Shown: one piece after another, positions 24,919-29,390 of the stretch | Numbering within the stretch: the first letter of the stretch is position 1 | Layout of the letters: every line of letters begins with the position of its first letter | Source of the DNA: Mycobacteriales bacterium | Lineage (GTDB): Bacteria; Actinomycetota; Actinomycetes; JAFAQI01 | DNA: 64,000 bases | Direction: 5' to 3' | Assembly: GCA_035695045.1 (NCBI GenBank) | Contig: DASSEX010000085.1 | Location: forward strand, 6,440-70,439 | Translations under genes and position numbers: made by a program | The notes under the pieces: generated by a model | Database searches by the model: none | Told to the model about the DNA's origin: nothing | The model's input: only the letters and a program-made list of their open reading frames with translations

Positions 24919-27375
24919 ATGTCCACGGCGACGCTCGTCCCGCCCGCCGCTGACGTCGGCCTTTGTTCGGCGGAGGCTGCTGCTCGCCTGCGTGACCGTG
25001 GGCCTAACCGGGTCGGACAGCCGCCGCGACCGCTGCTCTGGCGACGCGTCGCCGCACAGCTGACCGACCCGTTGATCCTCGTGCTGCTGACGGCGATCGT
25101 GCTGACGCTCGCGACCGGCGACGGGACCGACGCGGTGATCATCGCGCTCGTCGTGGTGGTGAACTCGACGGTCGGCGTCGTACAAGAAATCCGTGCGGAT
25201 CATGCGATCGAGGCGCTGGCGGCGCTGACCGGCCCGTCCGCTCACGTGCGACGCGACGGCGTCGTCGTCACGATCCCTGCGGAAGAGGTCGTGCCCGGGG
25301 ACGCCGTCGTTCTCGGTGAGGGTGACATCGTCCCTGCGGACGGTGACCTGGTGGACGCGGTTCGGGTGCTGGTCGACGAGTCCGCGCTCACCGGCGAGGC
25401 CGAACCCGTCGAGAAGTCGTTGCTGACGGCTCCGCTCTTGTCCGCGGGCACCGTGGTCGTGCGCGGCCGGGCGGTGATGCTCGTCACCACGACCGGGTCG
25501 GCCAGCGCTCTGGGTCGCATCGCCGCTCTCGTGAGGGAGCGCCCACCGGCGACGCCACTGCAGCGACGGCTGGTCCAGCTCGGCCGCTGGCTGGCCGTTG
25601 GCGCGGCCGCGCTGTCGATCGTCGTCTTCGCGACAGGGCTGGCCCGCGGGCAGACCGTCGAGCTGATGGCGGTGACAGCGGTCAGTCTCGTCGTCGCCGC
25701 CGTCCCCGAGTCACTGCCTGCGGTGGTCACCCTTGCGCTCGCACTCGGTGCCCGGCGGATGGCAGCGCATCACGCCATCGTGCGCCGGCTGCCGGCGGTC
25801 GAGACCCTGGGATCCGTCACCGTCGTCGCCACGGACAAGACCGGGACCCTGACCCACGGGCGGATGGCGGTCGCCTCCCTCTGGACACCGGCACGCGGTC
25901 GGGTCGATCTGGACGAGGAGTGGGAGGGACCCGAGTCACTTCTGCTGCGTGCCGCGGCTCTGTGCAACGACGCCCGGCTGACGCCGGCGCTGGCACCGAC
26001 GGACACCTGGACGGCGACCGGCGATCCCACCGAGGCGGCGTTGCTGCGGACGGCTGCGCGCGCCGGCTGGCATCGTGACCTGCTGGAAGAGGCAGCACCC
26101 CGCCTTGCCGAGTGGCCGTTCGAGAGCTCTCGCCGGTCGATGACCACGATCCATGCGCAGCCTGCGGGCCCCCTGGTCATCACCAAGGGTGCGCCCGACG
26201 TGCTGCTGTCCGAGACGCGGCTGACGAACGACGCGGCGACCGTCGACCGCGCGCGGCAGCAAGCGGCCGCGATGGCGAGCGACGGTTACCGGGTGCTCGC
26301 TGTCGCTGCCGCGACCGTCGACACCGACCCCCGCCAGATCGACGTCGACCACCTCCGGCTGCAACTCCTGGGAATGGTGGCCCTGGCCGACCCGGTGCGG
26401 GAGTCTGCGGCTGCGACGGTCGCGGGGTTCCGCGGCGCCGGGATCACTCCGGTCGTCATCACCGGCGACGACGCGCGGACCGCGATCTCGGTCGCTCGTC
26501 AGGCCGGGCTCGGCACCGAGCTCGGTGTCGAGCTCCATGCGAGGGCGACGCCCGAGGACAAGCTGCGCATCGTCGAGTCGCTGCAGCGCGCCGGCGACGT
26601 GGTCGCGATGACGGGCGACGGCGTCAACGACTCGCCGGCGCTCCGGCAGGCCGACATCGGCGTCGCGATGGGCCGGCGCGGCACCGAAGCCGCTCGACAG
26701 GCCGCGGATCTCGTCCTTGCGGACGACGAGCTCGGCACGCTCATCGTTGCCGTCGAGGAGGGTCGCCGTGCCTATGACAACGTCCGCCGCTTCCTGCTCT
26801 TCGGGCTCGCCGGCGGCGTCGCCGAGCTGCTCGTCATGGTCGTCGGCCCGTTCCTCGGCATGACGCTGCCGCTGCTCCCCGCGCAGATCCTGTGGATCAA
26901 CCTGCTGACGCACGGTCTGCCCGGCGTCGCGATGGGCGCCGAACCGGCTGATCCGTCTGTGTTGCGCCGGCCTCCGCGGCCGCCGCGGGAACCAGTGCTC
27001 GGTGCCGGTCTCTGGCAACGCATCGCTGTGTGCGCTGCCGTCACGACGGCGATCACGTTGTCCGTCGGTGCGGTCCTGCGTCCGGGTCAGGCCGAGTGGC
27101 GCAGCGCGACGTTCTTCGCTCTCGGCATGGCTCAGCTCGGCGTTGCCATGGGTGTCCGCGCCCGGGTTCTCACGAGGGACAACCTGCTGCTGCCGGTGGC
27201 AGTGGTCATGTCGGTCGGGCTGCTGCTGGCCGGCATCTACGTCGCGCCGCTGCAGGAGCTTCTCGGAACTCGACCGCTCGACGTGCCGGAGCTGCTCGGG
27301 ATCTCGATGCTCGCGGTGGCGTCGTACGTCGTGACCCGCGTCAGCGGTCGCGGAGTCGGACGGACAAGCAGGTGA
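24919..27375 (+). CDS. Cation-transporting P-type ATPase (CtpF-like, type II)
   Basis: [40 protein letters not shown]. Starts 6 nt after the GNAT stop. Confidence 0.92.
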   Translation: MSTATLVPPAADVGLCSAEAAARLRDRGPNRVGQPPRPLLWRRVAAQLTDPLILVLLTAIVLTLATGDGTDAVIIALVVVVNSTVGVVQEIRADHAIEALAALTGPSAHVRRDGVVVTIPAEEVVPGDAVVLGEGDIVPADGDLVDAVRVLVDESALTGEAEPVEKSLLTAPLLSAGTVVVRGRAVMLVTTTGSASALGRIAALVRERPPATPLQRRLVQLGRWLAVGAAALSIVVFATGLARGQTVELMAVTAVSLVVAAVPESLPAVVTLALALGARRMAAHHAIVRRLPAVETLGSVTVVATDKTGTLTHGRMAVASLWTPARGRVDLDEEWEGPESLLLRAAALCNDARLTPALAPTDTWTATGDPTEAALLRTAARAGWHRDLLEEAAPRLAEWPFESSRRSMTTIHAQPAGPLVITKGAPDVLLSETRLTNDAATVDRARQQAAAMASDGYRVLAVAAATVDTDPRQIDVDHLRLQLLGMVALADPVRESAAATVAGFRGAGITPVVITGDDARTAISVARQAGLGTELGVELHARATPEDKLRIVESLQRAGDVVAMTGDGVNDSPALRQADIGVAMGRRGTEAARQAADLVLADDELGTLIVAVEEGRRAYDNVRRFLLFGLAGGVAELLVMVVGPFLGMTLPLLPAQILWINLLTHGLPGVAMGAEPADPSVLRRPPRPPREPVLGAGLWQRIAVCAAVTTAITLSVGAVLRPGQAEWRSATFFALGMAQLGVAMGVRARVLTRDNLLLPVAVVMSVGLLLAGIYVAPLQELLGTRPLDVPELLGISMLAVASYVVTRVSGRGVGRTSR

Positions 27376-28105: not shown

Positions 28106-29390
28106 CCGGCCGGCTCGCCGAGGTGTGGAAGATGCTGTTGCGGATGGTCTTGATGATCTCGTCGAGGCGGGTCGTCTCATCCTGGAGCTGACCGCGCAGG
28201 TCCTGGTCCGACACCCGGCCGGCGATGCTCTGGAGTGACAAGCCGGCGGCGAACAGGCGCGAGACGACCTGGTCGTTCATCTCCGCCGCGATCGCGTCGC
28301 GTTGTTGCAGCAGCTCGACGAGCTGAGCGTTCCGGCGTGCGTTCAGCTGCGCCAGCGCAGCCGCAGCGTGCTCGGCGAGGATGTGCACCGCGTCCTGGTC
28401 AGTCGGCTCGAACGGACGCGCATCTCGGCCGCGACACAGCCACAGATGCACCAGGTCGCTGCCCGTGCCGAGCGTGGTGGCGAAGCAGTCGCTGACGTCG
28501 ACGCCGTGGGCACGCAGGTCGGCGAGCATGGCCTCCGGCGACGGATCGCGTACGACCATGCCCCGCACGGCACCTGCGTCGCCGCCGTCAGCCGCGACGA
28601 CGCGCCACGTCCCGCTCGCGGATCTCGCGACGACGACGCACAGGTCGGCAGCACCGACCCCGCGCATCTGGTCGGCGATGACGGCGAACGGGTTCGGCGC
28701 CCCCTCCACTCGTTGGCCGAGCTCGGCGGCGGCCGACAGTGCCTGGTGCCGGGCGCGGGCGTCGGCGTAGAGCTGCGCGTGGTCGATCGCGATGGCGGCG
28801 GCACCGGCCAGCGCGACGAGCAGCTCCTCGTCCTCGGCGGTGAACGGCCGGCCGCCGGCCTTCTCCGTCAGGTAGATGTTGCCGAACACGCGATCCCTGA
28901 CCCGCACCGGCACGCCGAGGAAGGAGTGCATCGCCGGATGTCCGGCGGGGAACCCGACGGCGTCGCGGTGTCCGCGCAGATCCTGGAGCCGCAGCGGCTT
29001 GGGCTCGGAGATGAGCAGCCCCAGGATCCCGTCACCGGTAGGCAGGTTTCCGATCTTCGCGGACATCTCGTCCGTCATCCCGACATGGATGAACTCTTCC
29101 AGCCCCCCGTCGGCACCGATGACACCGATGGCGCCGTACTGCGCGCCGACCAGCTGGCACGCCGACTCGACGATGCGCCGCAGCAGGTGCGGCAGGCTGA
29201 GGTCCTCGGACACGGCCTGGGTGGCCGAGAGAAGCGCGCGGAGTCGCCCTTGGGTCTCGAGCACGTCCTGCGCCCGTTCGATCAGCTGCGTGAGGAGCTC
29301 GTCGAGCTCCAGCCGGGCGATCTGCGGAAAGACCATCTGCGACCGCTGTTGCGGCGCCGCCTGTTCGGCCGTGAAGTCCGACTTGTCCAC
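28098..29390 (-). CDS. DosS/DosT-like GAF-GAF protein ending in a degenerate HisKA_3 helix hairpin (no HATPase domain)
   Basis: GAF-A with [32 protein letters not shown] (DevS/DosT-like heme pocket), a second GAF, then [25 protein letters not shown] in place of RDRIARDLHDxVIQ. The stop comes right after IRNSIFHT. Start is GTG 29390 or ATG 29336. Confidence 0.85.
   Translation of the reverse strand: [430 protein letters not shown]

Follow-up and report, generated by a model that had tools for sequence, protein, structure and literature searches.

A 64,000-nt stretch of contig DASSEX010000085.1 (the window; all coordinates given here are window positions) carries on its minus strand a gene for a protein resembling the heme-based sensor kinases DosS (DevS) and DosT, followed at once by a gene for a dimethylargininase (DDAH). 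On the other side of a short intergenic region, a universal stress protein (USP) gene and an arginine deiminase (ArcA) gene are read in the opposite direction (Table 1). An earlier note, made from the letters of this DNA alone, had described the first gene as encoding a kinase-dead sensor coupled to the enzyme. The open reading frame (ORF) extends over 28098..29567 (-). Within it, the start supported by orthologue alignment and by the deposited annotation is the GTG at 29390, which aligns with the ATG of the orthologues behind a conserved AGGCAGGTG ribosome-binding site; together with the TGA stop at 28098-28100, this start yields a product of 430 aa. The gene has a GC3 of 0.87, and its product is 100% identical to P0001, a protein deposited as 'GAF domain-containing protein [Mycobacteriales bacterium]' on a 102-kb contig of a metagenome-assembled genome (MAG). 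The protein belongs to a clade of ten 90%-identity clusters (412-434 aa, 54-100% identical), all of which come from soil metagenomes or MAGs. The domain order proposed earlier, in which GAF-A, GAF-B, and a dimerization and histidine phosphotransfer (DHp) helix pair follow one another as in DevS and DosT, was borne out by PDB matches, by alignment with full-length kinases, and by a structural model. The claim that the frame closes directly after IRNSIFHT had to be amended, as seven more residues (SASRPDA) were found.

Table 1. Features of the pseudo-kinase locus and its immediate surroundings (window positions).
Feature	Position	Strand	Evidence or remark
Pseudo-kinase gene, GAF-A/GAF-B/DHp	28098..29390	-	GTG start, TGA stop, 430 aa
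Long N-terminal helix, aa 23-60	29211..29324	-	AlphaFold2 helix; most conserved segment
GAF-A, DosS/DosT-type heme domain, aa 64-203	28782..29201	-	Pfam, PDB, Foldseek
GAF-B, aa 234-328	28407..28691	-	Kinase alignment and AlphaFold2
Degenerate HisKA_3 DHp helical hairpin, aa 351-425	28116..28340	-	Full-length-kinase alignment, AlphaFold2
Start/stop overlap of GAF and DDAH genes, ATGCCTGA, 8 nt	28098..28105	-	Sequence
Streptomyces-type dimethylargininase (DDAH), 254 aa	27341..28105	-	NF045660, PDB
Divergent intergenic region common to GAF and USP genes	29391..29530		Alignable across orthologous loci
DevR/OsdR-like box, + strand AGGACCTAAGCCTCT	29471..29485	+	Conserved in L001, L002, L004, L008, L092
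Tandem-domain USP gene, divergent from GAF gene	29531..30373	+	Pfam Usp 4e-25, two stretches
Arginine deiminase ArcA gene, downstream of USP	30404..31639	+	TIGR01078 496 bits vs 489; Pfam ADI 1.7e-124

The sensor half of the protein was compared with known structures and was modeled with AlphaFold2 (AF2) from a 58-sequence alignment, giving a mean pLDDT of 84.4. Across the 58 homologues, the RLELDxL, GRLR, and LL elements of the long N-terminal helix were invariant. Pfam recognized one GAF domain only (GAF_2 at E 2e-21, aa 64-203) and left GAF-B unmatched. In searches against the PDB, GAF-A matched DosT (2vzw, E 9.8e-48) and DevS (2w3d, E ~1e-41); it is about 50-56% identical to GAF-A domains of the DosS/DosT family, and Foldseek superimposed it on those of DosS and DosT with TM scores of 0.91-0.93 and an rmsd of 1.3-1.7 Å. 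The heme pocket of DevS and DosT is marked by a proximal histidine (DevS H149, DosT H147) and a distal tyrosine (Y171 and Y169, respectively). The pocket string pointed out earlier was found again in our alignment, with His151 (codon 28938-28940, minus strand) aligned to the heme histidine and Tyr173 (codon 28872-28874, minus strand) aligned to the pocket tyrosine, both invariant in the 58 homologues. At the position of DevS Glu87, GAF-A carries a DosT-like Gly. From these residues we infer that the pseudo-kinase probably binds heme. GAF-B is about 18 residues shorter than its counterpart in the full-length kinases; AF2 modeled it as an alpha/beta domain, with strands and helices at 234-328 and a pLDDT of about 90. 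A connecting helix follows GAF-A in the model, and Foldseek matched the tandem arrangement to phosphodiesterase (PDE)-type tandem GAFs (PDE2A/5/6). Behind GAF-B, a continuous helix (aa 329-392), a turn, and a second helix (aa 396-425) take the shape of a DHp hairpin, again at a pLDDT of about 90.

The elements on which kinase chemistry depends have been lost from this hairpin and from what should follow it. HisKA_3 (PF07730) remained below threshold in the window protein (15.3 bits vs a cut-off of 24), and nine of the ten clade members gave weak HisKA_3 matches only, the best at E 3.7e-4. In DevS and DosT, the phospho-accepting histidine is H395 and H392, respectively. When the H-box was aligned with the RDRIARDLHDxVIQ motif of full-length kinases, Asn372 (AAC codon 28275-28277, minus strand) fell on the phospho-histidine column, so that the proposed replacement of this histidine by asparagine was upheld. 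Five residues further on, Ser377 (codon 28260-28262, minus strand) takes the place of the Gln of the DxxxQ motif, the string N-D-Q-V-V-S reading as DxxxS. The full-length relatives in the alignment all have H-D-x-x-x-Q, and the entire clade has Ser at the Gln position. It was reported that the DxxxQ adjoining the histidine is required for the phosphatase activity of HisKA_3 kinases toward their regulators (PMC3510030), and ChrS-Q191A has been cited as phosphatase-deficient (PMC9491836). The gene ends five residues past DHp helix 2. Pfam gave no HATPase_c match in any of the ten clade members; tblastn with a full-length kinase matched only residues 7-429 in the 64 kb and found neither an ATPase domain nor a remnant of one in any frame, both results agreeing with the absence of HATPase_c stated in the earlier note. 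The RLFAAGLxLQ and LDxxIxTIR motifs of the DHp are retained. With the ATPase domain absent, His changed to Asn, and Gln changed to Ser, the protein has no elements for autophosphorylation, phosphotransfer, or phosphatase activity, and because the window protein lacks the histidine it cannot serve as a phosphorelay intermediate.

The same truncated form recurs throughout the clade. At the histidine position, nine of the ten clusters have Asn and one has Thr; the stop position is common to all ten, and no precomputed HisKA_3 or HATPase_c match exists for any of them. The nearest relatives outside the clade are kinases of 560-620 aa that are about 48% identical over 95% of the pseudo-kinase length, together with two other short proteins, P0011 and P0081, that retain the histidine. 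A frameshift or split gene was considered and rejected, since tblastn disclosed no ATPase remnant in any frame and ten clusters have the same stop; the earlier argument that the short form is no frameshift product thus holds. When nine orthologous genes were compared in pairs by the Nei-Gojobori method, median dN/dS was 0.045 for the N-terminal helix, 0.21 for GAF-A, 0.43 for GAF-B, and 0.30 for the DHp, values that are rough because dS lay at 0.9-1.3, near saturation. Purifying selection was clear in every segment. At the sensitivity of the scan, no clade member was found among 185,579 GTDB species representatives, where the best match was a full-length protein 48% identical. Judged by its sequence, the gene is a predicted catalytically inert DosS/DosT paralogue maintained by selection within a small, uncultured clade of Mycobacteriales from soil, and it combines the features of a pseudo-histidine-kinase: kinase ancestry, catalytic losses, and dN/dS of 0.05-0.43.

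To place this clade in a wider setting, its profile was searched against 1.84 billion cluster representatives, in which, at 50% clustering, the clade has shrunk to a single entry. Among the best 150 matches, about 20 were other DosS-like proteins of 417-485 aa that aligned through the DHp and ended soon after, that is, without the catalytic and ATP-binding (CA) domain; a few of these have frameshift-like tails, so that completeness of the gene is not certain for all of them. Most of the CA-less proteins keep the histidine, eight (the clade representative included) have Asn, Ser, Gln, or Arg in its place, and DxxxQ is often degraded. The replacements are Asn in P0201, P0216, and P0256, Ser in P0181, Gln in P0183, and Arg in P0209 and P0236. 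From these alignments, the CA domain and the histidine seem to have been lost recurrently in this kinase family. In the literature covered, from which subscription journals were mostly missing, we found no described sensor/DDAH pair and no natural CA-less DosS/DosT homologue. The protein type as such is less singular than the earlier note implied: CA-less DosS-like proteins, several of them lacking the histidine, recur in actinobacterial sequences. Three individual cases were also noted. L021, from a Frankiaceae MAG, codes for a full-length protein whose histidine site is occupied by Asn (DLNSEVIRRLF). L079, from Streptacidiphilus neutrinimicus, is the sole CA-less match in GTDB; it has lost the heme histidine too and is not comparable to the clade. 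At the P0081 locus (JGI 3300071325), the gene for a histidine-retaining CA-less GAF-GAF-DHp protein has a CHASE3-HisKA_3-HATPase kinase gene on one side and two response-regulator genes on the other; this arrangement, which is separate from the Asn clade, may represent a phosphorelay of a split or accessory type.

The gene directly downstream encodes a complete enzyme, as had been proposed. NCBIfam NF045660 matched it at 406 bits (cut-off 340) over profile positions 2-249 of 249, and the DDAH of Pseudomonas aeruginosa (PDB 3rhy/1h70) was matched at E 1.6e-40. Its Cys (VTCLS), His (VLHLK), and Asp (TLDGGD) align to the catalytic residues, which in the P. aeruginosa enzyme we take to be C249, H162, and E114; homologues 65-85% identical bear the name dimethylargininase. 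The ATG at 28105 overlaps the stop of the GAF gene by 8 nt, exactly as first described. This 8-nt junction is present in seven of the nine clade members with readable downstream DNA (the window, L001, L002/L003, L004, L008, L089, and L091), in the pattern A/GTGnCTGA (or TAG) and with ATG or GTG as the DDAH start. A sigma-70 and terminator scan of 27200-29700 returned no match, with no terminator-like site between the two genes. The pseudo-kinase gene is the first of a two-gene operon with DDAH. In L004 (8056-8538) and L008 (3252-3734), a gene for a 160-aa neocarzinostatin-family (PF00960) protein overlaps the end of the DDAH gene; in the window no PF00960 gene lies behind DDAH, and a P-type ATPase gene is next instead.

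The link between sensor and enzyme is not obligatory. Orthologues of the pseudo-kinase were always short but were not always found beside DDAH: in L005/L006 a convergent P-type ATPase gene lies directly downstream of the pseudo-kinase, without DDAH, which speaks against a sensor-DDAH pairing, and no DDAH is seen in the 145 nt that lie downstream in L090. The converse arrangement was seen in L092 (ERZ1761208, a JX_farmland scaffold of 31.8 kb), whose DDAH is 85% identical to that of the window, more than the DDAH of any linked locus. L092 is syntenic on one side through USP, amino-acid permease, ArcA, and ABC transporter genes, and on the other through genes for an 818-aa P-type ATPase, a GNAT protein, a second ATPase, an alcohol dehydrogenase (ADH), and an acetyl-CoA hydrolase. 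Its DDAH gene stands directly behind the USP-divergent intergenic region, and the GAF gene is absent. The intergenic region aligns with that of the window, including the DevR/OsdR-like box, a CGTTCGAC motif, the ribosome-binding site, and the ATG-GAC start. On inspection of L092:7860-8030, DDAH was found joined to the leader and first codons (MDD...) of the GAF gene, with GGTGC before the DDAH homology; this GGTGC resembles the last GAF codons of L091. Judging from the leader that the two loci have in common, from the ATG-GAC start, and from the GGTGC remnant, L092 looks like a clean, near-complete in-frame deletion of the pseudo-kinase ORF, a direction of change that we infer. Actinobacteria, Streptomyces among them, are rich in DDAH homologues of 65-85% identity, which are far more numerous than the GAF clade; at 74-85% identity there are about 30 DDAH clusters vs 10 GAF clusters, several of the DDAH clusters lying on long contigs without a clade member. 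No GAF-DDAH fusion occurred among the best 120 DDAH homologues. DDAH and the sensor are accordingly dispensable to each other, as L005 and L090 lack DDAH, L092 lacks the GAF gene, and DDAH is widespread.

Operators of DevR/DosR/OsdR are palindromes of 16-20 bp, TTSGGGACTWWAGTCCCSAA in M. tuberculosis and AGGGCCGATCGGCCCT in Streptomyces. The intergenic region upstream of the GAF gene can be aligned between loci though the orthologous proteins are only about 60% identical, and five other loci have its box in the conserved form CAGAGGCTTAGGTCC. Copies of the box occur at 12136-12150, 60 nt upstream of the USP gene at 12210, and at 20661-20675, 64 nt upstream of the ADH gene at 20739; five matches with at most three mismatches were counted in the window vs 0.84 expected. 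The orthologue box GGGGACCTAAGCCTCT has 11-12 of 16 positions in common with OsdR sites such as AGGGACCTTCGGCCCC, and USP, ADH, and nitroreductase genes have been reported as members of the OsdR regulon (PMC5069765). The DosR-like box announced at 29471 is thus real, conserved, and repeated, but it is a partial match and not the full DevR/OsdR palindrome; that it is a DevR/OsdR-type operator is credible but unproven, and we regard it as a candidate. Seen across the window, a 15-16-nt motif, RGGMCCTAMGCCTCT on the plus strand, stands 46-64 nt upstream of three plus-strand stress genes (USP, Zn-dependent ADH, and USP) in constant orientation, which suggests a shared regulon operator or a promoter element more asymmetric than the DosR/OsdR palindrome. 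Near-perfect DosR/OsdR-type palindromes, better than the box, were seen at 8987-9000 (GGGACTTTGGTCCC, upstream of the L,D-transpeptidase gene at 9084) and at 5030-5043 (GGGACCAAGGTCCC); a third, at 38140-38153 (GGGACTTTCGCCCC), lies between the nitroreductase gene and the USP gene at 38488. Reading the conserved intergenic motifs as an extracytoplasmic function (ECF)-sigma promoter was dropped because the spacing was unsuitable.

The surrounding genes were classified by a Pfam scan that covered 36 of about 45 likely genes of the window; seven likely genes at 55.6-64 kb lay outside it. From 12210 to 40354, the scan delineated an island with USP genes at 12210, 29531, and 38488, P-type cation ATPase genes at 14252-17260, 21837-24809 (-), and 24919-27375, and genes for an acetyl-CoA hydrolase/transferase (19429), a Zn-ADH (20739), ArcA (30404), a nitroreductase (37131), and a CBS-pair protein (38936). 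The USP gene next to the pseudo-kinase is at the same position in L001, L004, L008, and L092, and ArcA and an amino-acid permease occur together in L004 and L092. These gene classes are those of the DosR regulon of M. tuberculosis and S. coelicolor's OsdR regulon (PMC5069765), and the region, from its gene content, reads like a Dos-regulon-like, dormancy-type island. Two further observations were made in the window. Two adjacent SpoIIE/PP2C phosphatase genes lie at 48093-52009; the second (49790-52009) has an N-terminal HATPase_c_2 domain resembling an anti-sigma kinase and a GAF domain, and is a partner-switching-type regulator near the stress island. The ORF at 21837-24809 (-), a 990-aa P-type ATPase, begins with about 200 low-complexity, Arg/Ser-rich residues; its true start is probably much further downstream, because this beginning overlaps the opposite-strand GNAT gene (24400-24912).

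The intact heme pocket and dimerization helices, the missing catalytic residues, the purifying selection, the co-transcription with DDAH from a promoter in a stress island, and the mutual dispensability of sensor and enzyme led us to view the protein as a modulator. At a probability of roughly 55%, we favor a hypoxia-induced, gas-sensing pseudo-kinase that modulates a DosS/DosT-DosR pathway through its DHp, with DDAH carried along in the same regulon. The heme GAF-A would sense O2, NO, CO, or the redox state in the manner of DosT, and the protein would be induced along with the hypoxia regulon. Its signal would be passed solely by protein contacts of the DHp and N-terminal helices, either by pairing with a full-length DosS/DosT-like kinase in mixed dimers or by docking of a DosR-type regulator without chemistry. 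Of the two mechanisms suggested in the earlier note, action through the DHp helices on the true kinase is thus the one that we would retain, extended to the regulator. Either route would tune the output of the regulon, and if the pseudo-kinase is itself a regulon member, this would amount to ligand-dependent feedback. DDAH would not be an obligate target of the sensor but would belong, with ArcA and the amino-acid permease, to a co-regulated module of arginine/citrulline catabolism, and the citrulline that this module yields may feed ATP formation at the substrate level when oxygen is limiting. Such a module, and not a physical sensor-enzyme pair, is the simplest account of the shared operon. 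Several findings weigh against modulation of a Dos pathway, however. Neither a NarL-type regulator (DosR/DevR/OsdR) nor a full-length DosS-like kinase was found among the 36 Pfam-scanned ORFs, and tblastn of the 64 kb did not find the kinase either; the only regulator in the scanned ORFs is an OmpR-type two-component pair (887-3012). With no partner kinase or regulator in the 64 kb, a cognate Dos system in the genome is assumed. The left half-site of the orthologue box is perfect, but the right half agrees at four of six positions, leaving a partial match to the DevR/OsdR consensus, and as all three copies of the box point toward plus-strand genes, it may serve the USP gene first. Moreover, an 8-nt overlap conserved in seven loci is equally expected from a complex of fixed stoichiometry.

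That last point belongs to a different explanation, which develops the second proposal of the earlier note: the heme-GAF protein would sense gas or redox state for DDAH alone, in a complex with it, and ligand binding would switch the hydrolysis of methylarginine or other guanidino compounds on or off. The production of citrulline, or a release from nitric oxide synthase (NOS) inhibition, would in this way be tied to NO/O2 status. The overlap in the window and in six more distinct loci at 60-76% protein identity, the lack of a terminator between the genes, and the apparently intact DDAH catalytic residues agree with it. Yet the syntenic L092 keeps an 85% identical DDAH with the same promoter and leader and no GAF gene, the Asn-type protein occurs in L005 and L090 with no DDAH, the roughly 30 DDAH clusters outnumber the 10 GAF clusters and several sit on long contigs without a clade member, no fusion turned up in the best 120 DDAH homologues, and the window ORFs that were scanned included no NOS gene. 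The coupling in seven of nine loci stands, but the idea of a sensor regulating its coupled enzyme is weakened by these loci and by the partnerless DDAHs, and we consider it unlikely. In a variant that we hold to be distinctly unlikely, the DHp hairpin would be re-used as a docking module and binding of O2, NO, or CO by heme would gate DDAH hydrolysis directly; if true, this would be a bacterial heme-based counterpart of the NO-ADMA (asymmetric dimethylarginine)-DDAH axis and the first histidine-kinase sensor module re-wired to a metabolic enzyme.

The loss of every catalytic signaling residue and the position in a stress island would also suit a hypoxia-induced heme protein that does not signal at all but buffers, stores, or detoxifies O2/NO/CO or heme, with the DHp as a dimerization handle; no other globular part is as well conserved as the heme pocket, with a dN/dS of 0.21 for GAF-A and with invariant His and Tyr residues. 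A mere handle, however, would have no need of a DHp (0.30) and especially an N-terminal helix (0.045) as conserved as in active kinases, nor of the retained RLFAAGLxLQ and LDxxIxTIR motifs, and the known DosS/DosT GAF-A domains are sensors, not scavengers; this explanation appears rather unlikely. As for a functionless, decaying kinase remnant, or an assembly or frameshift artefact, the gene was lost in the close relative L092, and members of the clade are rare, the 185,579 GTDB species representatives having yielded no close homologue. Against this, ten independent clusters, taken from different samples, have the length of 412-434 aa, the stop, and the Asn/Ser substitutions in common, every segment has a dN/dS well under 1 at a dS of about 0.9-1.3, the window frames hold no ATPase remnant, and the AF2 model is confident (mean pLDDT 84). 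The conservation data effectively refute decay or artefact, to which we assign next to no probability.

Heme-based gas sensing and the control of mycobacterial dormancy have DosS/DosT-DosR as their model system. If the modulator interpretation is right, a natural, conserved paralogue that retains the heme sensor and the helices for dimerization but is incapable of phosphorylation and dephosphorylation alike would act on that system as a naturally occurring dominant modulator, and would be a natural counterpart of the laboratory-evolved ChrS pseudokinase discussed below. If the CA domain has truly been lost repeatedly, in many cases with the histidine lost afterwards, an unrecognized layer of pseudo-kinases may exist in actinobacterial responses to hypoxia and NO. 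A bacterial DDAH in a hypoxia-type regulon beside arginine deiminase hints, in addition, at methylarginine or citrulline as an anaerobic source of energy or nitrogen.

Compared with known systems, the protein is closest in build to DosS (DevS, Rv3132c) and DosT (Rv2027c) of M. tuberculosis and to OsdK of Streptomyces coelicolor, with which it shares the N-terminal helix, the heme GAF-A, the GAF-B, and the HisKA_3-type DHp pair, as well as a setting of USP, nitroreductase, and ADH neighbors with DevR/OsdR-like boxes. Unlike these kinases, it has no HATPase_c, has Asn for the phospho-histidine and DxxxS for DxxxQ, and has a GAF-B about 18 residues shorter; its gene has no adjacent DosR-type regulator and is co-transcribed with DDAH. 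ChrS_CA-fs of Corynebacterium glutamicum is a laboratory-evolved, CA-less pseudokinase that alters signaling via the paralogous kinase HrrS without needing its own histidine, and the authors of that study knew of no natural ChrS pseudokinase (PMC9491836). Both proteins are actinobacterial derivatives of heme-responsive kinases and have lost the CA domain. ChrS_CA-fs, however, is a laboratory product that resides in the membrane and retains the histidine, whereas the window protein is natural, conserved, and predicted to be cytoplasmic, and lacks both the histidine and the Gln. By analogy, ChrS_CA-fs is the closest experimental precedent for a modulator.

DivL of Caulobacter crescentus is described as having no phosphorylatable histidine and as acting by protein contact on a kinase and a response regulator (PMC9491836). 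It differs in keeping the CA domain, in having Tyr at the histidine site, in belonging to HisKA and not HisKA_3, and in using PAS and not heme-GAF sensors. In the split kinase HK1/HK2 of M. tuberculosis (Rv0600c/Rv0601c), HK2 reportedly retains its histidine and is phosphorylated by HK1. HK2 is likewise a DHp polypeptide without an ATPase domain of its own and resembles the histidine-retaining P0011 and P0081, whereas the window protein has no histidine. Set beside bacterial DDAH, finally (P. aeruginosa PA1195; NF045660), the window enzyme is full-length and predicted to be catalytically intact; only its operon partner is unusual.

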